Shown: positions 14,745 to 38,884, numbered from the stretch's first letter. The stretch is 59,212 bases of DNA from a bacterium (GCA_026706565.1 JAPOYM010000106.1:1-59212), one strand, 5' to 3'. The notes: generated from the letters alone by a model not told the origin. Numbers and translations are program-made.

Positions 14745-14809
14745 GAGCAAAACCTACTTCCCGCAAAACAGCCAGGTCAAAGAACCGACGGGGCCCCTGC
14801 GCCGCGGCG

Positions 14810-16366: not shown

Positions 16367-16398
16367 GGACAAAGCCTACTTCCCACGCAGAAGCCGGG

Positions 16399-17723: not shown

Positions 17724-18063
17724 CGCCTGAAGGAGCGCGCCCAGGCGAGCCAGGCGACGACGTCGCCGACGGGCGGATGCCGGGAGGGATCCCCGTAGGC
17801 CGTCACGGAGCGGAACGACCTGTAGGGGGTGGAGACGGCCGGGCGCAGCTGCAGCAGCGACTCCCTCCAGAGCCCCGGTCGCCGGAGCACTTCCCAGCCG
17901 ACGGCTAGCGCCAAGGCGCCGAGGCGGCCACCGCGGGCGGGAATGCGACTTGTTCGGCCCACCACCGGCGTACCCTAGTGGCCGCGGCGAATCCGGTTGG
18001 GTTCAGGTCGAGCACCATCGGGACCGCCGAGAACGCAGGCGAGCACGCACCGGATCTGCCAAC

Positions 18064-19053
18064 GTGACCAACGCGAACCCCGAACCGACATCGCCCCTCG
18101 GCACCCAGGCAGGTTTCGCGTCTACGTTCGAGGCGATCGCCGCCAACGTCGAGCGCGTCGTCAAAGGCAAGCGCAGGCTCGTCCGGCTGCTGCTGCTCTG
18201 CCTCTTCGCGGAGGGCCACGTGCTGCTGCGGGATCCCCCCGGCGCAGGCAAGACCGTCCTCGCCAAGACGGTGGCCCGCACGCTCGGGCTGGAGTTCGGC
18301 CGCGTCCAGTTCACGCCGGACCTCATGCCCAGCGACGTCGTCGGCGTGTCGCTGTGGAACCCCGTCCAGAACGGCTTCGAGTTCAGACCGGGCCCCGTCT
18401 TCGCGGGCCTCCTGCTGGCCGACGAGATCAACCGCACCTCTCCCCGCACCCAGGCCGCGCTGCTCGAAGCGATGGCCGAGCGCCAGGTCACCGTCGACGG
18501 CACGACGCATGGTCTGGCCTCGCCGTTCCTGGTGATCGCGACGGAGAACTCCCAGGAGACCGAAGGCACCTTCCCGCTTCCGACCAGCCAACTGGACCGC
18601 TTCTGCATGAGCCTGAGCGCAGGGTTCCCGGACCGCGCCGCGGAGTCTGAGATCCTGGAGTCCCATCGCCGCGGGACACCCTTGGACTCGCTCCCCCCAG
18701 TCACCGACACCGCCACGGTCCGAGCCATGATCGACGCCGTCCGCTCGGTCCATGTGGCGCCCGCGGTGCGGGACTACCTCGTGGACCTGGCCCTCAGCAG
18801 CCGCGCCCACAGCGCTATTTCCGGTGGGATGTCGCCGCGGGCCACCCTGGGGCTTCAGCGCACCGCACAGGCGCGAGCCGCTGCGGCGGGGCGGACTTTC
18901 GTCCTCCCCGACGACGTGAAGGAGGTGGCTCGGCCGATCCTGGCGCACCGCCTCACCCTGGAGCAGAACGCGCAGTTCGCCGGCACCACCCCCGCCGCGG
19001 TGATCGACGAGATCCTCGCCGACACGCCCAGTCCACCGGTGAGCGTCCGCTGA
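18064..19053 (+). CDS. moxR: MoxR-family AAA+ ATPase
   Basis: HVLLRDPPGAGKTVLAKTVA (Walker A), LLADEINRTSPRTQAALLEAM (Walker B / sensor), FLVIATENSQE. The start is set at GTG 18064, giving about 329 aa; the ORF track begins at 17950. Confidence 0.9.
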   Translation: MTNANPEPTSPLGTQAGFASTFEAIAANVERVVKGKRRLVRLLLLCLFAEGHVLLRDPPGAGKTVLAKTVARTLGLEFGRVQFTPDLMPSDVVGVSLWNPVQNGFEFRPGPVFAGLLLADEINRTSPRTQAALLEAMAERQVTVDGTTHGLASPFLVIATENSQETEGTFPLPTSQLDRFCMSLSAGFPDRAAESEILESHRRGTPLDSLPPVTDTATVRAMIDAVRSVHVAPAVRDYLVDLALSSRAHSAISGGMSPRATLGLQRTAQARAAAAGRTFVLPDDVKEVARPILAHRLTLEQNAQFAGTTPAAVIDEILADTPSPPVSVR

Positions 19054-19066
19054 CCGGACCGGTGCC

Positions 19067-20236
19067 TTGACCCGAGCCGGCGTACAGACCCTCATCCCGG
19101 CGTTGGTGTCCGGGGCGGTCGCACTGCTGTTCGGGCTGCCGGAGCTCTTCTTCGTGGCGGCGACCTGCGCCGGCTTGGTGCTCGCGGCCGCCGCCGGGGT
19201 GCTGTTGCGGCCCCCCCTGCGGATCGCCTGTGCGCCGGCGCGCAGGCGCGTCCCCGCCGGCACGCCGCTCGCTGTCGGGGTGCGCGTCAGCAACGGCGCC
19301 CGCCGGCGGACCGCTCCGTCGGTCGAGATCATCGACGATTCGGCCGAGGGGACCGAGACGGTGCTGAGCCTTCCGGCGCTGCCCTCGGGGGCCGCCCTCG
19401 AGGAGCGCTACTGCCTGTCGACCGAGAGGCGCGGCTGGCGGGTGCTCGGACCGGTGTGGATGGAGGTGACCGACCCCTTCGGACTGGCGCGGCACCGGCA
19501 CCGGGCCGCCCCCCGCGACAAGGTCCTCGTGTGGCCGCGGATCGACGACCTAGCCGGCTTCGCCGCGGCCGTCGAGGACGCGACCGAGAGGCGGCGGCAC
19601 ACCCGGATCGTGCCCGGCGCCGAGACTGACCTCCACAGCCTCCGACGGTACGAGCCGGGCGACGATCCGCACCGCATCCACTGGCCGTCCAGCACCCGCC
19701 ACCGGGAACTGCTGGTCCGCCGCTTCGAGACCGTCGAGCGGCCCGAGACCCTGCTGTACCTCGAGACCGACGCCGACGCCGCCACTGCGGAAGTCTTCGA
19801 GCGGATGGTCTCAGCGGCCGCGGGGCTGGCCACCCTGGCCGCGTCCGCCGGCGGGACGGTCCGGCTGATCACCCGCGGCGGCGCCGAGGTGCGCGCCACC
19901 GGGAGCGCCGTGCCCATACTCGACGCCCTCGCGTTCGTGGCGCAGAGCCGCCCCGAGGACCTAGCCGCCCCGTTGCTCCCGGTGGGCGCCGCCCGGATGA
20001 TCCTCCTGGCCGTCGTCGGCGACATGGCGCCCCACCGTCCCGACGGCTTGCCCAGGTTCCCAGGGCGCCGCGTCATCCTGCAGTTCTGGCAGAACGAGGC
20101 GCCGTCCTCCCACCGCGACGTCGTGGCCGTCGGCCCCGAGGACTCAACGGCCCTGCGGTGGCAGGAGCACCTCGCCCGGCGCTCTGGGACCGCCCGGGAG
20201 CGGGAGGCGCCGACCGCGGCCGCCGCGGCGGGATGA
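19067..20236 (+). CDS. DUF58 domain protein (vWA-like partner of MoxR)
   Basis: LRRYEPGDDPHRIHWPSSTRHRELLVRRFE is the DUF58 signature. Two N-terminal TM helices. TTG start as given in the track, so the start is uncertain. Confidence 0.85.
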   Translation: MTRAGVQTLIPALVSGAVALLFGLPELFFVAATCAGLVLAAAAGVLLRPPLRIACAPARRRVPAGTPLAVGVRVSNGARRRTAPSVEIIDDSAEGTETVLSLPALPSGAALEERYCLSTERRGWRVLGPVWMEVTDPFGLARHRHRAAPRDKVLVWPRIDDLAGFAAAVEDATERRRHTRIVPGAETDLHSLRRYEPGDDPHRIHWPSSTRHRELLVRRFETVERPETLLYLETDADAATAEVFERMVSAAAGLATLAASAGGTVRLITRGGAEVRATGSAVPILDALAFVAQSRPEDLAAPLLPVGAARMILLAVVGDMAPHRPDGLPRFPGRRVILQFWQNEAPSSHRDVVAVGPEDSTALRWQEHLARRSGTAREREAPTAAAAAG

Positions 20237-22521
20237 GACCGACACCGCAGCCGCCGCCGCCGTCGCTGCCCGCTGAGATCCTGCTGGTCGGGGTCAGCGT
20301 CACGACCCTGCTCAGCGGGCTGCGGCTCTTCTCCGACGGGTCGTTCCTGCCGCCCGTGATCGGCGCGACCCTCCTGACGCACGTACTGGTGGCTGTCGTG
20401 CGGCGTGCCGGTCGGAGCATCGGCCTAGGCGCCCTGGTGTCGCTCGTGGGCGTCGCCGCGCTGCAACTCTGGGTCCACTACCCGCACACCACCCGCTTCG
20501 GCCTGCCCCAGCGAGCCACCCTCGAAGCTCTCTCCGACGACTTCCGGGGTGCTTGGGACCTCGTCAACTCGTCTCAGGTGCCCGTCGCCGCGCAAACCGC
20601 CCTAGTGGTCATCGCCGCGGCTGTGGCCTGGGTGATTCCGGTGCTCGCGGACTGGGGCGCATTCCGAGTCGGCGTGCGGGGCGAGGCCCTGGTGCCGGCC
20701 GCCATGGCCTTCGTGGCCGTCTCGCTGTTCGGGACCGACGAGGGAAGGATCCTCTATCCGCTCCTCGTGGTGACCTGCGCGGTGGCGTTCGGGTTGGTCC
20801 ACCATCGCAGCCAGAGGCCGGCGCGCCGGGGCCTCGGCGGCGGCGAGCGCCTGACGCATCGGGGGCCGCTGGGGCTCGCCGGAAGTGCGCTGGCGGTGAC
20901 CGGCGCAACGCTGGCCACCGTCGTGCTGCTGCCCGCGCTGTCCGACGGGCCGCTCCGGCCGCTGCTCGACCCCGCCGCGGCGCCGGCCGAGGGCGAACGG
21001 AAGGTCGTGCTCAGCCCGCTGGTGGTGCTCCCCGGGCAACTCCTGCAGAACCCCCACCTGGAGCTCTTCTCGGTCCGCAGCACGCAGCGGGCCTACTGGC
21101 GGCTGACTGCCCTCGGGGACTTCGACGGGGTCGTCTGGTCGCTCGACGAGAGGACCGCCACAGCCACCGGCGCACTCGCCAGCCGGGCCGCCACGACAGG
21201 CCCGGTCAGCGAGGTGACCCAGACCTACCGGATCGACGCCCTGGCGGCCGTGTGGCTGCCCGCCGCCTACCAGCCCGTCGGCTTCGAGGCGGCCGGGAAC
21301 TCGTTCAGGGCGAGCTTCGAACCGGTCTCCTCGACCTTGCTCGTGGGTTCGAGCCGCGGCGACTCCGACGGCCTCAGTTACACCGTGCGGTCCGCCGTGC
21401 CGCGTTTCGAGGCGGACTTCCTCGCCTCGCTGCGCAACGACCCCGCCGACGTCCCGCCCGGGTTCACCGACCTGCCGGCCGGCTTGAGCCCGGCGCTGGC
21501 CGAGCTCGCCGCCGAGGTCACCGCGGGGCACACCGGGCCGTACCAGAAGGCCCTCGCCATGCAGGACTGGTTCCGCAGCCGCTTCGAGTACGACCTCGAC
21601 GTGGCGGCCGGCCACTCCAGCGCCCGACTGGAGGATTTCCTGCTGGAAGACCGGAGGGGATACTGCGAGCAGTTCGCCGCCGCCTTCGCCACCCTGGCGC
21701 GGACGCTGGGACTGCCGGCGCGGGTGGCCGTCGGTTTCACCCCGGGGATCGAAGCAGGGCCCGACGAGGGCGACGGCGCCCTCTACAGCGTCCGAGGGGA
21801 GCACGCTCACGCCTGGCCGGAGGTCTTCATCAGCGGCGCGGGCTGGGTGGCGTTCGAGCCGACCCCCGGGCGCGGCGCGCCCGGAGCGGAGGACTACACG
21901 TTCGTGCCCGAGCAGCAGGACGCCCCCGGTCCGCCTACCACCCCCACCCTCGCCCCGCCGCAGCCGCCGCAGCCGCAGCCGCCGAGCGGCGCGCCGCCCC
22001 CGCCGGGGTCTCCCGCCGCCCCCGACGGAGGGGGCGACGTCGCCGGGACCGCGGGGCGCGTGGGGGTGCTGTTCGGCTTGGCCGCCGCGGGGCTCGCAGC
22101 CGCCGGGGGCGGGTACGCGCTGGCGACGGCAGGACTCCGCTCCGTCCGGCGGCGGCGGCGGCGCCGCTGGGCTCACGGGGATGCGGGGCGGACCGCCGTG
22201 GCGGCCTGGGAGGAGACTCTGGAACTCCTAGCGCCCCGCGGCATCAGGCCCCGCCTAGCCGAGACCCCCCTCGAGTTGGCGCAGCGAGCGGCCCTAGCCC
22301 TCGGCGCGGTGCCGGACATGTGGCGGCGGCTGGCCGTCTGCGTCTCGGCGGCGGCGTTCGGCGGCGACCCTGTGCCCGCCGAACTCGGCCAGCAGGCCGC
22401 CACCGCGGCGTCGGCCATCTCCGCGGCGCTCCGGGAGACCCGAACACCCGCCCAGCGGCTGCGCGCGCTGGTGGATCCTCAGCCGTGGGCGCTGCTGCAC
22501 GCCGGCCGCAGGACCGGCTGA
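20233..22521 (+). CDS. Transglutaminase-like membrane protein
   Basis: From ATG 20233 (ATGA overlap with the DUF58 stop). N-terminal polytopic region. RRGYCEQFAAAFATLARTLGLPARVAVGF...HAWPEVF..GWVAFEPTP is the Cys-His-Asp transglutaminase core. A Pro-rich linker and a TM follow near the C-terminus. Confidence 0.85.
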   Translation: MRPTPQPPPPSLPAEILLVGVSVTTLLSGLRLFSDGSFLPPVIGATLLTHVLVAVVRRAGRSIGLGALVSLVGVAALQLWVHYPHTTRFGLPQRATLEALSDDFRGAWDLVNSSQVPVAAQTALVVIAAAVAWVIPVLADWGAFRVGVRGEALVPAAMAFVAVSLFGTDEGRILYPLLVVTCAVAFGLVHHRSQRPARRGLGGGERLTHRGPLGLAGSALAVTGATLATVVLLPALSDGPLRPLLDPAAAPAEGERKVVLSPLVVLPGQLLQNPHLELFSVRSTQRAYWRLTALGDFDGVVWSLDERTATATGALASRAATTGPVSEVTQTYRIDALAAVWLPAAYQPVGFEAAGNSFRASFEPVSSTLLVGSSRGDSDGLSYTVRSAVPRFEADFLASLRNDPADVPPGFTDLPAGLSPALAELAAEVTAGHTGPYQKALAMQDWFRSRFEYDLDVAAGHSSARLEDFLLEDRRGYCEQFAAAFATLARTLGLPARVAVGFTPGIEAGPDEGDGALYSVRGEHAHAWPEVFISGAGWVAFEPTPGRGAPGAEDYTFVPEQQDAPGPPTTPTLAPPQPPQPQPPSGAPPPPGSPAAPDGGGDVAGTAGRVGVLFGLAAAGLAAAGGGYALATAGLRSVRRRRRRRWAHGDAGRTAVAAWEETLELLAPRGIRPRLAETPLELAQRAALALGAVPDMWRRLAVCVSAAAFGGDPVPAELGQQAATAASAISAALRETRTPAQRLRALVDPQPWALLHAGRRTG

Positions 22522-22544
22522 GCGTCGCTTCGGCGCGACGGGGC

Positions 22545-22928
22545 CTATTCGCCGCGCTGGTCGCGGTTGAAGCGGTCGCGCATCCGCTGCCCCGGCGTGC
22601 CTGTTCCGTCGCGCCAGGCGCCGCTCAAGGGATTGCGTGAGATCTCCTGCAGCCCGGCCTTGCCCACCAGGCGGGCGTTGCGCTCGAAGAACATCGCCGA
22701 GGCGAGCATGATGAGGAAACCCACGAACGACAGCCAGAACGAGGTCGACAGCGTGAAGATCATGAAGACGATGCCGGCGATGAACCCCAGCACAGACCGC
22801 CGGAGGTTGCGGAAACCGTGGCGGAACACCGTCGTGGAACGGACCTCTTCAGCAAGCTCGGGATCGGTCTCGTAGAGGTTCGCCTCGATCTCGCTGAGTA
22901 TTCGTTGTTCGTCCTCCGACAGCGGCAC
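22545..22928 (-). CDS. DUF3040-family small membrane protein
   Basis: GTG start. The N-terminus PLSEDEQRILSEIEANLYETDP is typical of DUF3040, and two TM helices follow. A GGGAGG SD lies 8 nt upstream. Confidence 0.75.
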   Translation of the reverse strand: MPLSEDEQRILSEIEANLYETDPELAEEVRSTTVFRHGFRNLRRSVLGFIAGIVFMIFTLSTSFWLSFVGFLIMLASAMFFERNARLVGKAGLQEISRNPLSGAWRDGTGTPGQRMRDRFNRDQRGE

Positions 22929-23124
22929 AGGCCCGCCTCCCTTCCCGTTACGCCTTGCGGTTACGCCTTCCCGGGTACTGCCTTCCCGGCCGGGTCGCCG
23001 TCCCCGGCGCTGTCCGACGGCTCACCGGTGTGCCCAAGTCTCGCACAACCAGCGCGCCGCGACAACACCTCCAGCGCCATCTGTGCCGCACCGACCGCCT
23101 CGGCGGGCACCTAGCCTTGTTGCG

Positions 23125-23436
23125 ATGAGCGGTTCCCGGGACGCGCCGGCGGAGCGCTCGGCCCGGCCGGGGCGGCGAGCGAGAGCCGCGGCGACCGCCG
23201 CGATCCTGCTGGCGGGGGCCTGCGGCGGGCTGATCGGCTACGCCCTCGTGGATGTGAGCTGCTCGGGCGACTGCGGCTGGCAGCTCGGGGTGGGGACCCT
23301 CACCGGCGCCGTGGTCTGCGCAGCGGGTGTCGCCATCGTCGCCTCCCTGACGCTGCGGGCCATGAGCGAGTGGCGCGAGGCCCCGAGGGGCGCCCGGTCG
23401 CCTCTGGCGCCGCGTCGTAGCCGGCGCCTGCGGTGA
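23125..23436 (+). CDS. Possible small two-TM membrane protein
   Basis: Part of ORF 23083..23436. AAILLAGACGGLIGYALV and GAVVCAAGVAIVASLTL are hydrophobic. I recognise no homology, and the composition is also compatible with a chance ORF. Confidence 0.3.
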   Translation: MSGSRDAPAERSARPGRRARAAATAAILLAGACGGLIGYALVDVSCSGDCGWQLGVGTLTGAVVCAAGVAIVASLTLRAMSEWREAPRGARSPLAPRRSRRLR

Positions 23437-28463: not shown

Positions 28464-29450
28464 CTAGCGAGCGCGCACCGGGGGACCGTGCAACTCCGCA
28501 GACCCCAGGCGGTCCAGCGCCAGATGGGCTGCGCCGATGACGCCGGCCCGGTCGCCGTGGCGGGCTCGGCGGAGCTCCACGGCGGGTCGCCTCTGCTGTT
28601 CTGCGAATACCTTCGACAGGGCGTCGCGCACCGGCGCCACGAACACCTCGCCCAACTCAGACATGCCCCCGCCCAGCACGATCACCTCCGGGGAGGTCAT
28701 CAGGATGAGGTTGTTCAGGCCGAGCGCCGCCCACGAGGCGAACTCAGCCAGCAACCGCCGCGCCACCGGGTCGCCGGCGGTCGCCAGCTCACCGACGTGC
28801 TCGCCCCGGAGGGCCTCGATGCGGCCCGCTGCCCTGTCCCGCAGCGCCGGCGCCTTGCCCGCCGCGGCTGCCTCGCGGGCGGCCCTCCCGAGCGCCTCGC
28901 CCGAGGCGAGCTGCTCCCAGCAGCCCCGGCGGCCGCACAGGCACTCGGGCCCGTCCGGGGCGACGATCATGTGCCCGGCCTCGCCCGCCAGCCCGTGCGC
29001 GCCGCGCCGGATCTCGCCGTCGAGCAGCAGCGCCGCCCCGATGCCGGTCCCGAAGGTCACGAGCAGGGCGTCGCTCACGTCGCTGGCGGCGCCGCCCTCC
29101 ATCTCGCCGCGGAGCGCTGCCGCGGCGTCGTTGTCCACCGCCACCGGGCGGCGGAGGCGGCCGGCCAGCATCGAGCGGAGCGGGAAGTCGGAGATTGCGG
29201 GGATGTTGGGCGAGGTGGCCACGACGCCGGAGCGGTCAACTAGCCCGGCGCACCCTACGCCCACGGCGGCCACCGGGCGGGCCGACTCCTCCTCCATCTC
29301 GGCGAGCATGGCGCAGATCGCATCGACGATGCCGCCCATGGTGTCGGGCCTGTCGCGGCGGCGGGCCGCGGCGCAGGCGGCGCCGTCGCCGAGCACTTCG
29401 GCCCGGATGTTGGTCCCGCCGACGTCGAAGCCGGCGCGGCTCGGGGTCAC
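28464..29450 (-). CDS. ROK-family glucokinase
   Basis: GFDVGGTNIR, GTGIGAALLLDGE, GEAGHM, CLCGRRGCWEQLASG (ROK zinc motif). Confidence 0.85.
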   Translation of the reverse strand: MTPSRAGFDVGGTNIRAEVLGDGAACAAARRRDRPDTMGGIVDAICAMLAEMEEESARPVAAVGVGCAGLVDRSGVVATSPNIPAISDFPLRSMLAGRLRRPVAVDNDAAAALRGEMEGGAASDVSDALLVTFGTGIGAALLLDGEIRRGAHGLAGEAGHMIVAPDGPECLCGRRGCWEQLASGEALGRAAREAAAAGKAPALRDRAAGRIEALRGEHVGELATAGDPVARRLLAEFASWAALGLNNLILMTSPEVIVLGGGMSELGEVFVAPVRDALSKVFAEQQRRPAVELRRARHGDRAGVIGAAHLALDRLGSAELHGPPVRAR

Positions 29451-29489
29451 GGCGACTCCGCCGGCTGACTCGGGACGGTGCCGCGGGGC

Positions 29490-29963
29490 TCAGCCGCGCC
29501 GCTGCGCCCGCTCGGCACTGACCGACTCGATGCGGCGGCGAAGCTGGTCCAGTGCCGTCTGCATGATGCGGGACTCGGCACGACGCTTCACGAAGCCGGG
29601 CATCGCCACGGTCAGCTCGGCCAAGAGGGAGTAGGTGATGAGCGTCTTGGCCTCGTCGTCGGCGGAGGGCGCCAGCTCGTACTCGCCGTCGAGGCAGCGG
29701 AGCTGATCGCCCTCGGTCAGCCGCCACGCCACCCGCAGGGGGTTGGTGCCGTAGAAGTACTTGAGCGTGTAGTTCACACTGCGGCCCATGGCCGCGGCAC
29801 GGAAGGCCACGAGGCCGCCTGCGCCGCTGTCGTCCCGCCGCAGGACGCGGGCCTCCTTGACGTCCGCCGCCCACTGCGGGTACCGCTCGAAGTCCACGAT
29901 GACGTCGAAGCAGTCCGCCGGCGAGGCGTTCACCAGCAGCTGGCGCGTCGAGAACTCAACCAT
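29490..29963 (-). CDS. SRPBCC (polyketide cyclase/dehydrase, START-like) family protein
   Basis: From ATG 29963: MVEFSTRQLLVNASPADCFDVIVDFERYPQWAADVKE is typical of the SRPBCC fold. The ORF track starts at 30059. Confidence 0.7.
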   Translation of the reverse strand: MVEFSTRQLLVNASPADCFDVIVDFERYPQWAADVKEARVLRRDDSGAGGLVAFRAAAMGRSVNYTLKYFYGTNPLRVAWRLTEGDQLRCLDGEYELAPSADDEAKTLITYSLLAELTVAMPGFVKRRAESRIMQTALDQLRRRIESVSAERAQRRG

Positions 29964-30085
29964 CCCGCCTCCGCCGCCTGCCCGGGGGCCGGCCGGCGAC
30001 AGTGCCGAAGCCGCCGCCCCAGCGAGCGGTCGCGCCCAAGTTGTACACGCAGGCAACAATACCGAACGCGAGCGCGCCGGGGGCC

Positions 30086-31249
30086 TCAGCTCAAGGCGCG
30101 GCGCAAGTCCGCGGCCAAGCGGTCGTAGCCGAACCGCTCGACGGCGCGCCGGCGCGCCGCGGCTCCCAGGCGGCGGCGGCGCTCGGGATCGTCGAGCAGC
30201 GAGGCCAGAGCCTCAGCCACCGCCGCCGCATCGCCCGGTTCGGCCACAACGAGCCCGCCGACCCCGTCCTCGACGGCCTCGGCCGCTCCCCCGCTGGCGC
30301 CGGCCACCTGCGCCACCCCCGCCGCTGCCGCCTCCAAGAAGACGATCCCGAACCCCTCCTGCTCGAGGCCGAACCAGCGTCTGCGGCACAGCATGGCGAA
30401 CAGGTCCGCGGCGCCGTACAGGTCGGCCAGATCCCCCTCGGCGACCCGCCCGAGCAGGCGCGCCGGCGCGCCGGTGCGGCGCACGAGCCTCGCCAGCCTG
30501 CCGCTGTCGCGCCCGGTGCCGGCGATGAGCAGGCGAATCGAGGGCCGACCCGGCGCCAGTCGGGCCACCGCCTCGATCAGGCGGTCCATGCCTTTGCGCG
30601 GCACCAGCCGGCTGACGCTCAAGACCAGGGCCTCCTCTTCGCTCACGCCGAGGCGGCGGCGCGCCGCCCGCCGGCGCTCATCGGAGAGGGGCGCGAAGCG
30701 GTCGACGTCGACCCCCGGCGGCACGTAGTGCTCCGCCGCCATGTCGGGGCACAGCCGCCGCGCCTCTGAGGCTGCGTACCGGCTGGCGGATATCACGACC
30801 TCGGCGCCCCCCAGGGTGCGCCGCAGCAGCGCGGCGGCGACCGGCAGCCGCGCCGGCACGGTCACCTCGGCGCCGTGCAACACCACCCCGTAGGGCACTC
30901 CCAGGCGGGGCCCTAGGGCGCCCACGGGCACCGCCGGGTCGAAGACGACCAACTCGGCGCCGCTTCGGGCCAGCAGCCCGCGGACCTCGGCCAGCACCGA
31001 CGGCACCGGCAGCAGGAACCGCGCCCGGCTGCGCACGATGGGGTACGCCTCACCGGCATCGAACGCGTCCGAGCCGGGGTGCGGGCGCGTCAGCACGCAG
31101 AACCGGTCGGGCGACAGGCGCCGCCACAGCTCCCAGAGGTAGTTCTGGATGCCGCCCAGCTTCGGCGGGTAGTCGTTGGTTACCAGCAGGTGGCGGCGGA
31201 CCTGCGCCTCGCCGGGGCCGCCGAGCCCTTCGAGGCGTCCGGCTGTCAC
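30086..31249 (-). CDS. GT4-family glycosyltransferase (PimB-like mannosyltransferase)
   Basis: LLVTNDYPPKLGGIQNYLWEL at the N-terminus, and the C-terminal EGFGIVFLEAAAAGV (E-x7-E type) motif. Confidence 0.85.
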   Translation of the reverse strand: MTAGRLEGLGGPGEAQVRRHLLVTNDYPPKLGGIQNYLWELWRRLSPDRFCVLTRPHPGSDAFDAGEAYPIVRSRARFLLPVPSVLAEVRGLLARSGAELVVFDPAVPVGALGPRLGVPYGVVLHGAEVTVPARLPVAAALLRRTLGGAEVVISASRYAASEARRLCPDMAAEHYVPPGVDVDRFAPLSDERRRAARRRLGVSEEEALVLSVSRLVPRKGMDRLIEAVARLAPGRPSIRLLIAGTGRDSGRLARLVRRTGAPARLLGRVAEGDLADLYGAADLFAMLCRRRWFGLEQEGFGIVFLEAAAAGVAQVAGASGGAAEAVEDGVGGLVVAEPGDAAAVAEALASLLDDPERRRRLGAAARRRAVERFGYDRLAADLRRALS

Positions 31250-31274
31250 CCTCCGAGCGTAGGCGCCTGTGCCC

Positions 31275-34200
31275 TCAGGCGACGAGCCGGGAGGCCCCCG
31301 CCGGGGGCGTCAGACCGAGCCGGACCCGGCGCTGCTGCTCGTAGAGGCCGAGCGCTAGGAGGGGGAAGTACTGCCGGTACAGGACGTAGTCCAACACCGC
31401 CGTGCGGAAGAACACCCCGGCCCCGTCCTGTTCGGGCCATTGCCCGTCGGCGCGCTGGGCCTCCAGCAGGAACCGGGCGCCCCGCGCTATCGCCGCCCAG
31501 TCCCCCTCGCCCGCTTCGAGGAGGGCGAGCATCGCCCAAGAAGTCTGAGTCGCATGACTCTCGCTGTGCTCGACGTAGCGGCCCTTCAGGCAGCCGCTGT
31601 GGTGCTCGCCCCACCCCCCGTCGGACCGCTGGCGGTCCAGCAGCCAGCGGCACGCCCGCCGCAGCGCCGGGTCGCCCGGGCGGGCGCCGGCGGCGAGCAG
31701 GCCCCTGACCCCGAAGTAGGTGCCGTAGATGAACTGCACGCCCCATGCGCCGCGCCACGACCCGTCGCGCCCCTGAGTCCGGCGCAGCCAGGCCTCCGCC
31801 CGTGAGGCTGCCCGCAGCGCCTGCGGTTCGGCTAGCTCCGGGACGTGTTCCCGGCAGGCGCACAGCGCCGCTAGGCACGACGCCGTGCATTCCACATGGG
31901 AGCGCTCTGTCATCGACTCGCCGAACATCTCCGCCGGGTTCAGCCACTCGAGGCCGACCGTTGAGCGCCGCGCCTCGTAGCTGCCGAAACCGCCGTCGCG
32001 GTTCTGGCCGCGCAGCATGAAACGGGCCGCAGCGCCGAGCGCCGCCGCGCTGGCCTCACCGTCGGCGGCGAGCAGTCCGAGCACCGCCTCAGCGGTGCAG
32101 TCGGTCACCGGCCAGCCGTGCCGCCTCCCGCTGAAGCACCAGCCGCCTTCGGGGTCGCTCCGGTACGCCTCTGCGAACCCGTCGACGCCCGCCTCGATCT
32201 GTTCCCGGCGCACGAACTCACCGCCGCGCCGCAGCGCGTCCGCCACGCCGTCGAGCTCGGGCACTGTCGCTAGGGCCTGCAGCGAGAACGCGGTGTCCCA
32301 AAGGGCGCTCCTCGCTCCGGCGAGGCGCGCTCCCCCCTCGACGTCCTCCCAGATCCAGACCTCCAGCCGCGCCAGGGCGCCCCGGCAGTCGGCGTCGTCG
32401 GGGTCGCGCAGCCACAGGGCGAGGATGTTGAGCAGGCCGCTGACCGGAGAGATGCTCATGCAGTCGGTGGTCCGCAGCTCCCAGCGGATGCGGCGGAGGA
32501 TCTCCTCGGTGCAGCGGGCGCGCCGCGCCTTGCCCGCGAACCGTTCGTAAAGCCGCGCCGACCCGTAGCCGGCGCGGAGCCACACACCGGGCCGGGCGAA
32601 GAGGTCGGCGCGGCGCAGACGGTTGCGGCCCGAAGCGAAATCCACCTCGGCGAACCCCTGCGGGAACAACTCCCCCCGTATGGCGGCGACCGCGGGCGTG
32701 ACGGGGGCCCGGTGCCCGAGCGGGTGGATCACCGCCATCGCCATGTAGATGAGCCGGGTGTGGCAGTACCACTTCGACGGGTGCAGCGGCGTCCAGCGCG
32801 GCAGGCACCACAGTTCGGGCAGGACGGGGTTTACCCCGCGCCAGTCGTAGAGGCCGACCAGCGCCAGCCAGAACTTCCCCCAACTCGGGATGCCCAGCAC
32901 CCCCTCTGATCGCAGGAACCGCCCCGCCGGCTCGATGAGCGGGTCGTCCGGCTCGACGCCGAGCAGTCTGGCCGCCACATAGACCAAGGCGGTGACGAAC
33001 AGGCTGGGCGCTGCGTGCGCGTGCAGCCCCCACGAGCCCCCTTCGAGGCGCGACCGCTCGAAGTAACCCAACACGCCGCTGCGCCGGCTGCTAGCGAGCG
33101 GCCGTCCCAAGATGTGGTGCAGCAGCACGTACTGCGCGGTCAGCAGGGGGCACCACACCACTTCGCCCTCCCAGGCCCCGTCTGGGCCTTGGAGGCTCAG
33201 CAGGCGCCTGCTGGCGCTGCTCAGCGCCGGGCCGGCATCGGGCGGCGGCGGCGCCTCGGGGAGGCTGGGACGGAGGTCATCGACTCCCGACGGCATAGAG
33301 ACCAGGAAGGCGCGCGCCAGACTCTCGCGGGCCCGCTCGTCCTTGCGTCCCCCGGCGTTGCGCGCCTTGCGGAGTTGGCGAACCCCGCGGAGAACCCACC
33401 CGAGCCGAACCGCCAGCGCACGGACGATGTCGCGGGTGCGACGCCAGGCGGCCCGCTCGCAGGACCTCGGGATCTCCCCGACGACCGCCCGGGCCCCCAT
33501 GGCGCCGCACGCCAGGCCCAGGCTGGTTATCGAGGTGTCCTCGCAGGCGAGCAGGCCGACGGTGCGGTCGCGCACCGCGGGACTCTCCCGCCAGCGACGG
33601 TAGATCGCCTGCCGCAGCGCCACCGACTCGACCCGATGATCCGCGAAGATCTCATACAGCCCCATGGCGAGCAGCTCCGGGGCGCGGGTGGCCCGGAAAC
33701 GCCTGTCAGTGAAGTCGCGGAAGTTCGTTCCTTCTGCCAAGCTCAGCGCGTCGCCGAAACCGAGGGTCATCCCCACCGCCGTCAGCGGGTGGTAATGCCC
33801 GGCCGCGTCTCCGATCAGGACCCGCCGCGGGCTCCCGTAGGTGGCGCGGGGCCTCAGCGCGTTGGCCGCGCCGAGGAACCTCCGCTCTCGCAGCGCTTCG
33901 AGGAACGCCGGCCGGAGCGCTTCGGGCAACCAGCCAGCGTAGGAGTCCGACATTGCGGCTACGAGGTCCTGAGACGAGAACCCCAAGGGGACGTCGACGA
34001 TGACCCGGACGGTCTGCTCGCCCAACCGGTACAGGAGCATCGGACCCGGCCCGCCGCAGACCATGTGCCCGTATCCCTCCAGCGGCAACCCCACCCCGCT
34101 CAGGGTGATCCCCATCATCCGCGAGCAGTTCCGCGGGCTCGTCCACAGCCCCAACGATCGGCGCACGATCGAGGCCCGGCCGTCCGCGCCGACGATCAGC

Positions 34201-34754
34201 GCGGCCTGCACCGACCCCTCAGCGCCGTCGCGGCTGAAGGTGACGCTCTGGTCCTCCACCGCCCGCACCCGCGCGCCGAGCATGAAGTCGATGCCCGGCT
34301 CGTCCGAAGCGGCGGCGCGCAGCAGCGAGACCAGCGCCTCGTGCTCGCAGACCAGACCGCGGGACCCGTCCGGGTACCGCAGCACGATCGGCTCGGAGCG
34401 GTCTTCGGGGAACACCACGAACCCCTTGCCCACGGTGCTCTGGGGCTGCTCGTCCAGCGCGATGGCGAAGTCGCGCAGGATGCGCAGGGCGGGGGGATGC
34501 AGCCACTCGCCTGCGAGCCTCCGAGAGGTGTTGGGGTTCGCCTCCAGCAGGGCCACCGAGGCGCCTCGGCGGGCGTGGGCCAAGGCGCACAGGCTGCCGA
34601 CCGGGCCGGCGCCGACGACGGCGACGTCGTAACTCCGGGCAGCGCCGCTCACGGGACTGCGCCCGCCGGCGTCTCCCGCACCGGCCCGCCGGACCGTTGC
34701 CGCGTCTCGCTGCCCATGAGTCGAATGTCGTTTCCCCGAGCCTTCCGTCCGCAT
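31275..34754 (-). CDS. Fusion protein: FAD-dependent squalene monooxygenase-like domain (aa ~40-470) plus oxidosqualene cyclase, terpene cyclase/mutase family (aa ~510-1159)
   Basis: One uninterrupted 1159-codon ORF from ATG 34754. The N-terminal half has YDVAVVGAGPVGS (dinucleotide fold), RRLAGEWLHPP, IVGADGRAS and GDAAGHYHPLTAVGMT (compare eukaryotic squalene epoxidase GDA..MRHPLTGGGMT). The C-terminal half matches my recalled human lanosterol synthase sequence block after block: IPSWGKFWLA, ALWDTAFSLQAL, GGWCFS..HGWPVTDCTAEAV (catalytic Asp codon at 32100-32102), NRDGGFGSYE, LNPAEMFGESM..SHVECTAS, RDGSWRGAWGVQFIYGTYFG, DGGWGEH, DGQWPEQDGAGVFF. Confidence 0.85.
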   Translation of the reverse strand: MRTEGSGKRHSTHGQRDAATVRRAGAGDAGGRSPVSGAARSYDVAVVGAGPVGSLCALAHARRGASVALLEANPNTSRRLAGEWLHPPALRILRDFAIALDEQPQSTVGKGFVVFPEDRSEPIVLRYPDGSRGLVCEHEALVSLLRAAASDEPGIDFMLGARVRAVEDQSVTFSRDGAEGSVQAALIVGADGRASIVRRSLGLWTSPRNCSRMMGITLSGVGLPLEGYGHMVCGGPGPMLLYRLGEQTVRVIVDVPLGFSSQDLVAAMSDSYAGWLPEALRPAFLEALRERRFLGAANALRPRATYGSPRRVLIGDAAGHYHPLTAVGMTLGFGDALSLAEGTNFRDFTDRRFRATRAPELLAMGLYEIFADHRVESVALRQAIYRRWRESPAVRDRTVGLLACEDTSITSLGLACGAMGARAVVGEIPRSCERAAWRRTRDIVRALAVRLGWVLRGVRQLRKARNAGGRKDERARESLARAFLVSMPSGVDDLRPSLPEAPPPPDAGPALSSASRRLLSLQGPDGAWEGEVVWCPLLTAQYVLLHHILGRPLASSRRSGVLGYFERSRLEGGSWGLHAHAAPSLFVTALVYVAARLLGVEPDDPLIEPAGRFLRSEGVLGIPSWGKFWLALVGLYDWRGVNPVLPELWCLPRWTPLHPSKWYCHTRLIYMAMAVIHPLGHRAPVTPAVAAIRGELFPQGFAEVDFASGRNRLRRADLFARPGVWLRAGYGSARLYERFAGKARRARCTEEILRRIRWELRTTDCMSISPVSGLLNILALWLRDPDDADCRGALARLEVWIWEDVEGGARLAGARSALWDTAFSLQALATVPELDGVADALRRGGEFVRREQIEAGVDGFAEAYRSDPEGGWCFSGRRHGWPVTDCTAEAVLGLLAADGEASAAALGAAARFMLRGQNRDGGFGSYEARRSTVGLEWLNPAEMFGESMTERSHVECTASCLAALCACREHVPELAEPQALRAASRAEAWLRRTQGRDGSWRGAWGVQFIYGTYFGVRGLLAAGARPGDPALRRACRWLLDRQRSDGGWGEHHSGCLKGRYVEHSESHATQTSWAMLALLEAGEGDWAAIARGARFLLEAQRADGQWPEQDGAGVFFRTAVLDYVLYRQYFPLLALGLYEQQRRVRLGLTPPAGASRLVA

Positions 34755-34840
34755 CCGCGTGACGGTCGGCCGAAAGATGATCCTGCATCACCGTAGCAGT
34801 GATGCCCGAAGGGCTCAGCCCCCGTAGGTGCCGGAGCGCC

Positions 34841-35440
34841 TCAGAGGTCCCGGACGCTTGCCGCCACGCCGGCCCCCTCAGCGGCTGCGGCGATCTTGTC
34901 CTTGACGGCGCTGGACGCGGTGAGTTGGATCGTCATCTGGATGTGGGTGACATCGCCGTCGACGGCTTCTGCGATGACGCTGCAGAGCCGCCAGACCGCG
35001 TCGCGGCGGCCGCCGGGGCGCGGGCAGACCGAGTAGACGAACAGCGCAGTGGCGGCGCGCTCTGCGGCTCTCGGATTGTTGCTGTTCCAGCCGACAGGCT
35101 CGCGGTGCAGGTCGAGGCGGCGGGCTGTGCCCCTTTCGGGATGGTCGGGGTCGGCGACCTCCGCGGCGGCGATCTCGCGCAGGCTCGCCCCGGTGCGGTG
35201 ATCGGTGACGAGCCCCGAGTCCAACAAGGAGTCCCGCACCGACCGAGCCGACAGAGGCAGGTCGCCGGGCCCGATCAGCTGCGGCGCCCACTCCCCGCGG
35301 CCGCCGCGCTCGGCCAACTCGTAGACGGTCGCGGCGAACACCTGGATCGTGGAGCGCACCCGCTGGAACCCGGCGTGCTGGGACCACTCCTCCTCGGCCA
35401 GGCGGATCAGCGACGGGTGGAACGGGTAGCAGCGCGCCAC
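34841..35440 (-). pseudogene. Fragment resembling the middle of a DUF499/BrxC-like defence-island ATPase
   Basis: 199 codons beginning (GTG) ARCYPFHPSLIRLAEEEWSQHAGFQRVRSTIQVFAATVY. The YPFHP...FQRxR block is what I recall from DUF499-family proteins, which are about 1000 aa. No P-loop is present, so the ORF looks truncated at both ends. Recognition is from memory only. Confidence 0.35.
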
Positions 35441-35489
35441 CCGCTCGGCCCAACCACGCCGAGCAGCGTTGACCTGTCGCCCCAGCCGC

Positions 35490-36020
35490 TCAAAAGAGCC
35501 TCGCCGCCTCCCATTCCGCCATCCGTCGCCGCTCGGCAGGACCGGCGATCATTGCCACGCAGGTAACACTTACCTGCTCGGGGACGGCGAGGCGCGCCCG
35601 GTTAAGGTGCTCGACTCCCGCCCGCGCTGCCTGGATCGCCTCTTGCGCGGCCCACCCGTCCGCGGAGAAGTCGTCGGAGTAGTCAGCGGCCTCGCGCGCT
35701 CGGATCAGGCCGACGAAGTGCTCCGCGAAACCCAGCAGATCGGCGTGACACTTCGGATTGTCCTGCAGCCACGCAACGTACCTTCGGTCCACCAACTGCC
35801 TGCACACGTCGCGGGCAGCTTGGTGCCGGAGCAGGCGCCTCGCGGCAATCCGGGCACGACCCTGCCAGGGGCGGGCTATCTCGTCGCAGAGCGCGGCGAA
35901 CAGGCTGTAGTAGGCCGTCGAGACGGCTCGTCGTATGGCCTCCTCCGAGGGTGGTTCCTCGGCGGGCCCGAGTTGGATCTCGGCGGCTCTGAGCAGCCCC
36001 TCGCTGGAGGGTGCAGCCAT
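35490..36020 (-). CDS. HEPN-domain protein (UPF0332-like)
   Basis: 176 aa from ATG 36020. AIRRAVSTAYYSLFAALCDEI, an RRLLRH (Rx4H-like) segment, and LIRAREAADYSDDFS match the helix pattern and R..ADY motif of UPF0332/HEPN proteins. Confidence 0.55.
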   Translation of the reverse strand: MAAPSSEGLLRAAEIQLGPAEEPPSEEAIRRAVSTAYYSLFAALCDEIARPWQGRARIAARRLLRHQAARDVCRQLVDRRYVAWLQDNPKCHADLLGFAEHFVGLIRAREAADYSDDFSADGWAAQEAIQAARAGVEHLNRARLAVPEQVSVTCVAMIAGPAERRRMAEWEAARLF

Positions 36021-36030
36021 GTCGCGCCGC

Positions 36031-36408
36031 TCAGCCCGCTTCGACGGATTCGGGAACCGGCACGCCGAGGCCGGTTGTCGACTCAGCCAGCTCCTCCGCG
36101 GTGCGGAGCCGAACCGTCGCCATGACGCCGCGGATGTCGGAGAAGTAGTCGTTCAGCAGCTTCTTGTACCTCTCATGGGTCTCCCACTTCCGCCCCAGTG
36201 GGTTGTCCGGGTCGTCGCGGGCCGGCATCTCCAGAGTCAGCTGCAGCAGCACGAACATCGCCGGCTCCTCGTCCCAACTCGCCGAGGCGTACCGCAGCCG
36301 CGCCGGGTCGCCGATCTCGCGAAAGTGCTCGTTGAGGCGGAGCACGGCGTCACCGAGCCTCGTGACGTCCACCGGGGTGGGCGGCAGGAGAACCTCTACG
36401 AACCCCAT
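36031..36408 (-). CDS. Hypothetical protein, upstream partner of the HEPN gene (no recognisable nucleotidyltransferase motif)
   Basis: 125 aa from ATG 36408. It ends 10 nt before the HEPN start. The composition is protein-like (mixed charged/hydrophobic, W/Y/F present). I recognise no family. Confidence 0.5.
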   Translation of the reverse strand: MGFVEVLLPPTPVDVTRLGDAVLRLNEHFREIGDPARLRYASASWDEEPAMFVLLQLTLEMPARDDPDNPLGRKWETHERYKKLLNDYFSDIRGVMATVRLRTAEELAESTTGLGVPVPESVEAG

Positions 36409-36414
36409 GAGTTT

Positions 36415-36443
36415 AGCGTATCACAAGTTATGGCAATGTCCAA
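36415..36443 (-). promoter_or_regulatory. Candidate promoter producing a leaderless mRNA for the 36408 gene
   Basis: The minus strand reads TTGGAC (36443..36438), a 17-nt spacer, TACGCT (36420..36415), then 6 nt (AAACTC) directly before the ATG. It lies in the only strongly AT-rich intergenic patch of the window (about 36409-36500). Confidence 0.3.
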
Positions 36444-36480
36444 CTCTCTCCCTGACTTTCATGATGTTTCTAATATATAT

Positions 36481-36618
36481 ATGATGGCCATGGTTCTCGT
36501 TGTTGTGGCCAGCGACCGAGAACTCCGACAAAGGGCGGGCTCGCTCGGCGCGAACGTCGTCGGCGCCGAGCAACTATGGCAGGTCCTTGACTCACAGCGA
36601 CAGGGCGGAACCAGCTAG
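36481..36618 (+). pseudogene. 45-codon ORF resembling the C-terminal tail of a YacP/NYN-type ribonuclease (possible gene remnant)
   Basis: MMAMVLVVVASDRELRQRAGSLGANVVGAEQLWQVL. The V.TSD....GA.v.sa.eL pattern recalls the end of YacP/Rae1-like proteins. The ORF is very short and the evidence is weak. Confidence 0.2.
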
Positions 36619-36671
36619 CGCGGCGGGGGCGCGAGATTCGGGCTGGTTTCGCCGTTAGCGCCGTACGGGCC

Positions 36672-37748
36672 TCATTCGACGAGACGGAGTAGGCGGTCGG
36701 CGTACCACTCGAGCGGGCGACGCTGAGTCCAGGCATCGATCGGCGCCTCCCAGGACCGGATCTCCGCCGCACGGTCGCGCCAGCGTCGGGGAATCCCGCC
36801 GAGCCCGAACCGTGCGCCGAGCGCCGCCCCTGCCGGAGCGGCGTTGCTGTCGGTGTCGCCCCCGGCGTTCACGATGGCCAGAAGACCGGCCTCGAAGCTT
36901 CCCGGATGGCGCGACGACCAGAGCACCGCCCCCAGCGTCTTCGGAGCGAACCCCGTGCCCCCGCCGTCCAACTCGAGATCTTCGATCCGAGCATCGGGCG
37001 CGAGGGCCGACTCGACAGCCGAGCGCACCGAGGCGGGGGGCGTCTCGGGCAACCCGAAAGCGCTCAACCGCTCGCCGGACGCCCGGACCGCCGCCCCGGC
37101 CCGATCCAGCAGAGCACCGGACTCGGGCCGTTCTCCCCGCAGGCAGGCGGCTATGGCGAAGTCCGCCAGCAGGGTCGACCACACACAACGCCAGTCCCAG
37201 TGCGTGACCACCGCCGAGGTGACACTGTTGCGGGCCAGCGCCGCGTCGTCGCGCATCCAGCGCAGGGCCACAGGCCCGCAGCGCATCACAGAACCGTTGC
37301 CGGCACTGTTGCGGCCCGATTCCTCCCATGCGAGGCGGGACGCATCGGCTGTACCAACCCCTCGCGGCTCTCGGACCTCGCCGGTCGGCGGGCGGCCGAA
37401 CTGTGCGTAGTTGCGCAGTTCGCGGCGCGGATCTGCGCCGCCGTAACGGCGGAGCACCCGCTTCGTGTGGCCCCCCATGCCAGCGCCGTTCAACTCGCCC
37501 CACTCCCAGAAGCGGCGCGCCAGATCGGAGAGGTCGAGGTCGCCGCCCTCGATACAGGCCTCGGCGAGCAGGATCGCCTGCGCGAGGTCGTCATCGTCGG
37601 GGAATCCCGCCTCCGCGGTGATTTCGCGGACGCCGTGGGGGTTCGGGCCCGCAATGAAGGCGGCGCTTTTGCCCTCCCACGGGATGCCGAGCAGGTTCCC
37701 CACGCCGATGCCGACCATCAGCCCGGCTGCTCGTTCTCTCAAGTCCAT
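36672..37748 (-). CDS. ADP-ribosylglycohydrolase family protein
   Basis: From ATG 37748: MDLRERAAGLMVGIGVGNLLGIPWEG is a typical ARH N-terminus, and GGDTDSNAAPAGAALGA is the typical C-terminal metal site. The ORF-track start (TTG 37796) is probably too long. Confidence 0.85.
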   Translation of the reverse strand: MDLRERAAGLMVGIGVGNLLGIPWEGKSAAFIAGPNPHGVREITAEAGFPDDDDLAQAILLAEACIEGGDLDLSDLARRFWEWGELNGAGMGGHTKRVLRRYGGADPRRELRNYAQFGRPPTGEVREPRGVGTADASRLAWEESGRNSAGNGSVMRCGPVALRWMRDDAALARNSVTSAVVTHWDWRCVWSTLLADFAIAACLRGERPESGALLDRAGAAVRASGERLSAFGLPETPPASVRSAVESALAPDARIEDLELDGGGTGFAPKTLGAVLWSSRHPGSFEAGLLAIVNAGGDTDSNAAPAGAALGARFGLGGIPRRWRDRAAEIRSWEAPIDAWTQRRPLEWYADRLLRLVE

Positions 37749-37792
37749 GCCTCTCGATGCTACGCGAAGCTGCAGTCGGCCCCGGCGCCGGG

Positions 37793-38884
37793 TCAATCAC
37801 CCGCGGGGGCCAGCTCCTGTGACACTTCGATCCAGCGGGCCAGTGCGGCGGCTGCGGCGCCGCTGTCCAGCGCTTCGGCGGCGAGCCGCAGCCCCTCGGG
37901 CAGATCGGCGGCCCCCTCGCCCACTACCAGCCCCGCCGCGGCGTTCAGGCAGACGATCTCGCGCCACGGCACGGATTCCCCCGCCAGCAGCGCGTGAGTC
38001 GCCGCCACGCCCGCGGCCACGTCCGCGCCGGCGAGGTCGGACAGTTCGACTGTCGCTAGGCCGAGTTCGCCCGGCGTGACCTCATAGCGCCGGATGCGGC
38101 CCCCGCGCAGCTCGATCACCCTCGTCGGCCCGACGGTGGACAGCTCGTCGAGGCGGGGATAGCCGTACACGACCATGGCCCGCTGCGTCCCGGTGACCGC
38201 TAGGACCTCGGCCATGCGCTCGGCCATGGCTGCGTCGTTCACACCGATCACCTGACGGCGCACCCCGGCAGGGTTAGCCATCGGGCCCAGGTAGTTGAAG
38301 GCGGTCGGCACTCCGAGGCTGCGCCGAGTCGGGCCGGCGTGACGCAGCGCCGGATGGAACAGGGGCGCCAGGCAGAAGGCGATACCGGCCTGCTCGAGGC
38401 ACCCGGCGACTCCTGCGGGCCCCAGATCGACCGCCACGCCGAGGGCTTCCAGCAGGTCGGCCGAACCGCACGAGGAGGACACCGCCCGGTTGCCGTGCTT
38501 GCAGACGCGCGCCCCGGCGCCCGCCGCCACCAGCGCGGCCATCGTGGAGATGTTCAGCGAACCGCTGCCGTCGCCGCCGGTGCCGGCGGTGTCGATGAGC
38601 CTCATCTCCTCGGCGTCGACGCCCACGTCGAGCGCCGCGGCACGCAGCCCTTCCAGCAACCCGGCCAGCTCGACGGCGGTCTCCCCCTTGGTCCGCAGGC
38701 CGATCAGCAGCCCGGCCATCTGCGCCTCGGTGGCGTTCCCCGCCAGCATGGCGTCGGCGGCCTCCCGCGCTTGTGCGCGGCTGAGATGCTCCCCGGCGAC
38801 GAGCGCCTTCAGCAGCGAGGCGAAGTCCACGGCGCCCGCGCCCGGGGCAGCGGCGGGGGTGTCCGCATCAGTATCCTTGCCCAT
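37793..38884 (-). CDS. trpD: Anthranilate phosphoribosyltransferase
   Basis: GLLIGLRTKGET, DTAGTGGDGSGSLNIST, KHGNRAVSSSCGSADLLEALG. Confidence 0.95.
   Translation of the reverse strand: MGKDTDADTPAAAPGAGAVDFASLLKALVAGEHLSRAQAREAADAMLAGNATEAQMAGLLIGLRTKGETAVELAGLLEGLRAAALDVGVDAEEMRLIDTAGTGGDGSGSLNISTMAALVAAGAGARVCKHGNRAVSSSCGSADLLEALGVAVDLGPAGVAGCLEQAGIAFCLAPLFHPALRHAGPTRRSLGVPTAFNYLGPMANPAGVRRQVIGVNDAAMAERMAEVLAVTGTQRAMVVYGYPRLDELSTVGPTRVIELRGGRIRRYEVTPGELGLATVELSDLAGADVAAGVAATHALLAGESVPWREIVCLNAAAGLVVGEGAADLPEGLRLAAEALDSGAAAAALARWIEVSQELAPAGD

Follow-up and report, generated by a model that had tools for sequence, protein, structure and literature searches.

The stretch of bacterial DNA considered here (GCA_026706565.1, JAPOYM010000106.1:1-59212) is 59,212 nucleotides long and is referred to as the window. 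Its minus strand carries a gene in which a squalene epoxidase (SE) is joined to an oxidosqualene cyclase (OSC). The open reading frame (ORF) runs without interruption through 31275..34754 (-), begins with an ATG and encodes 1159 aa, as the first-pass annotation had described it. The sequence is 72% guanine plus cytosine (GC). By ORF and codon analysis of the window, GC at third codon positions of the fusion ORF is 0.90, and its codon bias is that of a real gene. The start is refined here. Codons 1-34 of the ATG-initiated frame align to no relative and have a nonsynonymous to synonymous substitution ratio (dN/dS) of ~1. A GTG lies at 34652-34650 (V35 of the 1159-aa frame), and relatives have a Met exactly there. 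Because of these features, the true coding sequence is most likely 31275..34652 (-), a GTG-initiated gene of 1125 aa. The protein P0001, which is 99% identical to the fusion protein, is also 1125 aa.

The N-terminal module (33435..34652, minus strand; aa 35-440 in the 1159-aa numbering) is the squalene epoxidase, a flavin monooxygenase. It is matched by the Pfam models FAD_binding_3 (residues 42-340, E = 1.5e-20) and SE (PF08491; residues 184-385, E = 5e-20, 72.1 bits against a gathering cut-off of 20.1). Human squalene monooxygenase (SQLE, 6c6n) matches this half at 1.1e-24, or 4.6e-24 with the whole protein as query, and the signature motifs align. The next-best flavin monooxygenases among solved structures reach 3e-6 or weaker, and UbiH-family NCBIfam models score far under their cut-offs. 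Among group A flavin monooxygenases, the N-terminal half is thus nearest to SQLE. Four motifs align with human SQLE, namely the FAD-binding GAGPVG (GxGxxG, aa 48-53; 34593-34619), RRLAGEWLHP (34494-34523), GADGRASIVRR (34158-34190) and GDAAGHYHPLTAVGMT (aa 315-330; 33765-33812), the last three being of SE type. All are invariant or nearly so across 37 fused homologues. The epoxidase was first recognized from VVGAGPVGS, now located at aa 46-54, and from the motif at aa 315-330, and the Pfam and 6c6n matches back that identity.

The C-terminal module (31320..33224, minus strand; aa 511-1145) is an oxidosqualene cyclase, matched by Pfam, TIGRfam and human lanosterol synthase (LSS). SQHop_cyclase_N covers residues 512-804 (E = 2.2e-48) and SQHop_cyclase_C residues 816-1139 (E = 3.7e-58). 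Human LSS (1w6k) aligns to residues 516-1141 at 1.9e-125 (423.6 bits), which bears out the resemblance noted in the first-pass annotation. The squalene-hopene cyclase of A. acidocaldarius gives a weaker match than human LSS (4.6e-55, 190.5 bits). TIGR01787 scores 491.6 bits and passes its cut-off of 322.7, and the hopene cyclase model TIGR01507 fails (271 vs 431). Squalene-hopene cyclase identity was rejected on this failure and on the catalytic motif VTDCTAE (aa 883-889; 32088-32108), which has a single Asp followed by Cys instead of DxDD(T)A. The longer string HGWPVTDCTAE at aa 879-889 is of the V-x-D-C-T-A-E type, as originally read. Three canonical QW repeats are present, at aa 985, 1033 and 1091. 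The equivalents of human LSS D455, C456, C533, H232, Y503, W387, F444, W581, Y587, F696 and Y704 are conserved.

The inter-domain region (33225..33434, minus strand; aa 441-510) joins the two modules. It is made up of Arg-rich amphipathic helices (~aa 430-482) and then the Pro-rich tether SMPSGVDDLRPSLPEAPPPPDAGPA (aa 486-510; 33225-33299), which has a low predicted local distance difference test (pLDDT) score. A linker had been anticipated at about 33200-33400, which is about right. The hydrophobic moment peaks at aa 430-462, in an Arg-rich amphipathic helix, and no transmembrane-grade hydrophobic segment occurs anywhere in the fusion protein. The linker sequence is conserved across phyla. 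The AlphaFold2 model has a pLDDT of 74.6 and a predicted template modelling (pTM) score of 0.50. In the 1125-aa numbering, it has helices at 375-448, then pLDDT values of 39-55 at residues 449-473, then the cyclase. The best reading would be a tethered enzyme pair held together at the membrane surface. The model was set aside as evidence for a fixed inter-domain interface because of the pTM of 0.50 and the low-confidence tether. The model is uninformative on channelling of substrate by the fusion, which would be plausible.

A genome scan with one genome per species found relatives in 123 genomes from about ten phyla, and 80 loci were kept. Both halves share one frame in 74 of the 80 and are split in six. 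A protein search yields more than 120 fused full-length homologues of 1091-1181 aa with 66-99% identity. A library clustered at 50% identity contains 13 fused representatives, and the nearest unfused proteins are 48-51% identical. Most fused entries in databases bear no annotation beyond 'FAD-dependent monooxygenase'. Chromosome-level assemblies are found among the carriers, and the frame is also continuous in independent short-read assemblies. Within the clade of the window gene (the window clade), where dS is ~0.5-0.8, the SE half has a dN/dS of 0.11-0.15, the OSC half of 0.19-0.27 and the linker of 0.21-0.28. The SE half, the linker and the OSC half are under purifying selection. Because of this low dN/dS and the many independent one-frame homologues, an artefact or pseudogene is excluded for practical purposes. 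The one-frame loci and the selection on the linker confirm the covalent fusion proposed in the first-pass annotation. Its proposed novelty is lost, as the architecture occurs in the proteins, species and clusters counted above and was published in 2020.

Six genomes carry SE and OSC as separate adjacent genes (L055, L057, L059, L066, L069 and L073), and the two modules are therefore separable. The split-gene carriers belong to Thermoanaerobaculia, Ca. Multivorans, Tepidiformaceae and Dehalococcoidia. The break falls inside the Pro-rich tether, and in L066 the stop and start overlap by 4 nt. Split-form cyclases are 64-72% identical to the window cyclase. By sequence, these pairs may be products of natural fission or pre-fusion forms. 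Another arrangement is observed in Sandaracinus and Sandaracinaceae metagenome-assembled genomes (MAGs; L056 and L075), where a second stand-alone squalene epoxidase (~40% identity; 13570-14767) directly follows the fusion.

Elsewhere the window consists of core chromosome, including mraZ-mraW-ftsI-murE/F-mraY, dnaG, a sigma-70 factor, glyS, recO, era, ybeY and phoH. The nearest loci are found in MAGs labelled Acidimicrobiales or Acidimicrobiia, and the actinobacterial host suspected at first pass is thereby narrowed to Acidimicrobiales. A 99%-identical copy carries the sample code ROBB21, and the prefixes of relatives (APA_, IRC, COS, CAR and RHO) fit the sponge species of Robbins 2021. Because of these codes, the host is probably sponge-associated. 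Two other genes in the window stand apart from these. A Rieske-type ring-hydroxylating oxygenase alpha-subunit catalytic domain (58362-59150, minus strand) is cut by the window end and is unlike the SdmA-type Rieske protein of sterol clusters. An HNH endonuclease gene (17139-17723, minus strand) is flanked by a lipoate-ligase-like gene on one side and a MoxR/DUF58/transglutaminase trio on the other, within chromosome that is otherwise core.

The local gene order is trpD (37793-38884), the fusion, a GT4 glycosyltransferase, and then SRPBCC, ROK kinase, aminotransferase and PFK genes. It is shared with 12 relatives of 77-99% identity. The GT4 gene (30086..31249, minus strand) is of the PimB type, begins 25 nt past the fusion stop and matches Pfam Glycos_transf_1 and Glyco_transf_4. 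A variable islet (34841..37792, minus strand; GC 0.69) separates the fusion from trpD and is made up of small ORFs. Those at 34841-35440, 35490-36020, 36031-36408 and 36655-37503 match no Pfam or NCBIfam family except for a weak DUF499 fragment. The 99%-identical relative L081 has different islet cargo, an ADP-ribosylglycohydrolase, and the islet looks like an insertion hot spot. Fusion-less Acidimicrobiia (L086, L087 and L088) have the order trpD-(variable cargo)-Fer4_16-GT4-hyp-SRPBCC at this site, the cargo being an NYN protein or, in L086, a 1516-aa fn3/Calx-beta protein. Because these genomes keep the GT4 block beside a variable slot, the fusion occupies a variable slot for insertions between trpD and GT4, and it neighbors GT4 by position and not by function. 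A scan of 29400-37900 found no promoter-like sites and a single terminator-like site, located after GT4, which is below chance expectation.

The window gene is solitary. No homologue of the CYP51, ERG24, Rieske, 3βHSD or sterol methyltransferase (SMT) genes of sterol clusters occurs in the 59-kb window, and none of these partners lies within 10 kb on either side of the fusion in 12 window-clade members. Most other carriers have the fusion at the end of a 3βHSD-Rieske-ERG24-CYP51-fusion cluster, often with sterol methyltransferases nearby. Such carriers include Nitrospira, Nitrospinaceae, Gamma- and Alphaproteobacteria, Longimicrobiales, Chloroflexota, Ca. Poriferihabitans and some cyanobacteria. 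The fusion is solitary in all 18 Acidimicrobiia loci examined. When the CYP51 of the L083 cluster was used as a query, no window-clade genome was among the matches listed (at least 79% identity); as a positive control, the same search recovered at least 10 cluster-type fusion carriers. A second Acidimicrobiia group has the solitary fusion at another site, with an ERG2-like gene 5 kb away. In L085, SRPBCC (Polyketide_cyc2) and ERG2/Sigma1R-like genes (17686-18731) are observed 5 kb downstream of the solitary fusion, which suggests that the genes for downstream sterol enzymes are dispersed in some Acidimicrobiia. In a 72%-identical relative (L083/L084), the sterol cluster (14800-23390) includes three sterol methyltransferase genes in tandem. 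It also holds a second Rieske/3βHSD pair, a gene for an amine oxidase and one in which GPP34 is fused to a cytochrome P450.

The phylogeny is a neighbor-joining (NJ) tree of 168 cyclase domains; it is NJ only, has no named references, and MsbE (MT026193.1) itself is left out. Clustering of the cyclase within squalene-hopene cyclases had been raised as a test of its function, and in this tree it falls among bacterial OSCs. The window clade has a bootstrap of 99, and a group made up entirely of Acidimicrobiia has one of 69. The window clade is nested in a 56-leaf multi-phylum clade (bootstrap 100) that is probably sponge-associated. A larger group of ~92 leaves (bootstrap 74) consists almost wholly of fused proteins; bacterial OSCs without the fusion and OSCs of eukaryote length fall outside it. 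The Acidimicrobiales fusion of L008/L085 (10001-13345) has its cyclase half inside the window clade (distance 0.26, bootstrap 99), and its epoxidase half lies at 0.50, a distance like that of the other Acidimicrobiia group. Because its halves differ in closest group, this protein may be a mosaic formed by recombination at the domain boundary. For the window-clade epoxidase half (33435-34652), the nearest sequence is that of the L083 protein, which is embedded in a cluster (distance 0.37), and the other solitary Acidimicrobiia group is farther away (0.47-0.52). These distances hint at a distinct acquisition from a donor that bore the cluster.

Taken together, the gene probably encodes a two-module enzyme of the MsbE type that works at the membrane surface and converts squalene to a protosterol, likely lanosterol. 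The FAD-dependent squalene epoxidase would use squalene, O2 and reducing equivalents to generate (3S)-2,3-oxidosqualene. In the class II cyclase, D885, held by C886 and C956, would protonate the epoxide and yield a tetracyclic protosterol. The Arg-rich amphipathic helices and the Pro-rich tether of ~25 residues would connect the modules, giving 1:1 stoichiometry and co-localization at the membrane. Nothing points to a rigid tunnel from one active site to the other. The clade to which the gene belongs would have passed by horizontal transfer between bacteria of many phyla, which are probably associated with sponges. In the Acidimicrobiales lineage, the gene would have been inserted into the trpD-GT4 slot without demethylase or reductase partners and then inherited vertically under purifying selection.

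Several observations weigh against this picture. The epoxidase has Phe at the position of human SQLE Y195. Neither an electron donor or reductase partner for it nor genes for squalene supply (SQS or HpnCDE) are seen in the 59-kb window. The inter-domain geometry from AlphaFold2 appears unreliable at a pTM of 0.50, and no biochemical characterization of any fused SE-OSC was found in the searched literature. The best-scoring cyclase model, TIGR03463, reaches 727.5 bits and stays under its curated cut-off of 851. The fused clade also departs from human LSS at five positions in the region of the active site (Y98 to V/M, W230 to Y, I524 to S, T381 to G and C449 to H), so that the product could differ from lanosterol. 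Y98 is also absent in ~1/3 of unfused bacterial OSC representatives.

The last two points bear on an alternative in which the gene is a fused SE-OSC and its cyclase makes another triterpenol, for example cycloartenol, parkeol, an arborinol-type compound or some other scaffold. The sub-threshold TIGR03463 score and the residues at Y98, W230 and I524 favor it, as does the lack in the window clade of an adjacent CYP51 or ERG24 that would imply a 14-methyl sterol substrate. So does the pairing of H449 with V453. Human LSS positions 381/449/453 correspond to G813/H879/V883 in the fusion protein, which agrees with the G/H/V given in the first-pass annotation, and this triad is indeed mixed by the eukaryotic three-residue rule. 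The accompanying statement that the product cannot be predicted is too strong. The three-residue rule was set aside because column 381 is Gly in nearly all bacterial sequences and the MAFFT alignment at 381 is unreliable for eukaryote-length sequences; the single-residue bacterial rule was used instead. In bacteria, lipid analyses show that the OSC product tracks position 453 only, with Val giving lanosterol and Ile cycloartenol (Wei 2016, PMC4919349), and V453 goes with lanosterol in all tested bacteria without exception (PMC4919349). Val is found at this position in 85 of 89 fused or split relatives, and MsbE was assigned its product by the same valine argument (Mohanty 2020, PMC7074536). 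Cluster-embedded relatives immediately follow the genes for CYP51 and ERG24, whose substrates are 14-methyl sterols, an order that matches msbA-E. Those that share the G/H/V triad and V[ST]DCTAE are operonic with these two genes. Because the residue equivalent to human V453 is valine, the predicted product is most likely lanosterol, and a different triterpenol is unlikely. Sandaracinus amylolyticus, which makes lanosterol and zymosterol, was considered as indirect product evidence, given the fusion in a Sandaracinus MAG, and left unused, since the OSC of the cultured strain may not be the fused form.

The surroundings of the gene allow two further explanations, both less probable than a different cyclase product. 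The fusion and GT4 might form a functional operon for a steryl glycoside or saponin-like lipid. The genes are co-directional, the gap is 25 nt, no terminator-like site lies between them, and sponge sarasinosides are glycosylated norlanostanes that have been attributed to a symbiont (PMC7074536). The synteny comparison runs the other way. The GT4-SRPBCC-ROK-aminotransferase-PFK core block is present in fusion-less Acidimicrobiia (L086, L087 and L088), a Fer4_16 gene separates the fusion from GT4 in 80%-identical relatives, and the identity of GT4 (82-85%) follows organismal relatedness. GT4 homologues are named in JGI as PimB-type mannosyltransferases (phosphatidylinositol alpha-1,6-mannosyltransferase or PIM2 synthase). 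On the synteny comparison GT4 was rejected as a functional partner, and the operon is very unlikely. The other explanation is that a sterol cluster was lost and left this gene behind in decay, or that two genes were joined artificially by misassembly or a frameshift. This would fit the absence of the usual partner genes nearby and the six genomes with separate halves. It is hard to reconcile with dN/dS of 0.11-0.28 over the halves and linker at dS of ~0.5-0.8, with catalytic residues that are all intact, and with a frame that stays open in independent short-read and chromosome-level assemblies. This explanation is the least credible and is for the most part refuted, and a functional squalene-to-lanosterol enzyme remains the preferred one.

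If the enzyme is of this kind, the fused gene could make up the entire sterol pathway in this Acidimicrobiales clade, in genomes without a 14-demethylase, reductase or C-4 demethylase. This is a tentative and rather doubtful proposal. Were it true, the symbiont would accumulate unmodified lanosterol, as in Gemmata, and the one-gene protosterol pathway would be comparable to the two-gene pathway of that organism. Alternatively, lanosterol would be handed to the sponge host or to neighboring symbionts with downstream enzymes. Such a hand-over would amount to a division of labor in sponge sterol synthesis and would bear on the debate over sponge sterane biomarkers. More generally, the solitary Acidimicrobiia form is relevant to which members of a sponge holobiont produce which sterol intermediates, a question that matters for sponge-attributed steranes in the rock record (Brown 2023). 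The fusion is a compact single-ORF route from squalene to protosterol that could be expressed directly to settle the product of a fused SE-OSC. The fused and naturally split forms, with cyclase identities of 64-72%, provide a natural experiment on flux and oxidosqualene leakage.

Among known systems, human LSS (1w6k) and SQLE (6c6n) are the best solved-structure matches and are separate proteins of the endoplasmic reticulum membrane. The window protein lacks the first ~80 LSS residues and the N-terminal regulatory/transmembrane region of SQLE. Gemmata makes lanosterol and parkeol, and the squalene monooxygenase (SQMO) and OSC of Gemmata obscuriglobus were reportedly described as a minimal pathway by Pearson in 2003. 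SQMO and OSC suffice for unmodified protosterol in G. obscuriglobus (Rivas-Marin 2019, PMC6606645), which provides a demethylase-free precedent. The genes in this planctomycete are two, adjacent and unfused, whereas the window carries a fusion. The bacterium Methylococcus capsulatus makes sterols by a pathway whose SQMO and OSC genes (MCA2872/MCA2873) are neighbors; they encode separate proteins, unlike the window gene. Its CYP51-ferredoxin fusion (PMC7947880) is a natural bacterial sterol-enzyme fusion with a different partner pair.

The closest known system is MsbE, described in 2020 as a bifunctional fused SE-OSC (Mohanty 2020, PMC7074536). Like the window gene, MsbE has SE at the N-terminus and OSC at the C-terminus of one ORF and a valine at position 453. 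The bootstrap-100 clade that contains the window gene also includes the gammaproteobacterial loci whose gene order resembles msbA-E, and the window protein is ~55-60% identical to the gammaproteobacterial members. In msbA-E (oxidoreductase, Rieske, sterol reductase, CYP51 and fusion), MsbE comes last, whereas the window gene stands alone, outside any such oxidoreductase-Rieske-ERG24-CYP51-fusion operon. The architecture appears elsewhere in the literature. The fusion was mentioned again in 2023 (PMC10070321), when Brown 2023 trimmed 'fused SMO/OSC homologs'. SQMO and OSC genes are known from several actinobacterial orders (Santana-Molina 2020, PMC7306690). The premise of the first-pass annotation, that these genes are separate in known sterol-producing bacteria and that those organisms are not Actinobacteria, is out of date (PMC7074536, PMC7306690, PMC9531527).

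Of 537 MAGs from Ircinia sponges, 115 were reported to carry ERG24-CYP51-LSS clusters; they span 10 phyla and 11 host classes, Acidimicrobiia among them, and horizontal gene transfer and strong purifying selection were reported as well (LSS omega 0.17; Kelly 2022, PMC9531527). The LSS alignment of that study is 3765 nt, which is the length of the fusion, and its transfer and omega results agree with the present tree and dN/dS. Kelly 2022 described clustered genes and did not mention the SE half, whereas the Acidimicrobiia loci here are solitary. Sterols are unmentioned in a 2025 comparative-genomics paper on sponge Actinobacteriota and in Robbins 2021, and no description of the solitary Acidimicrobiia version in a core-genome slot was found in the searched literature. 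The fusion itself is published and widespread, and only its stand-alone position is new here.

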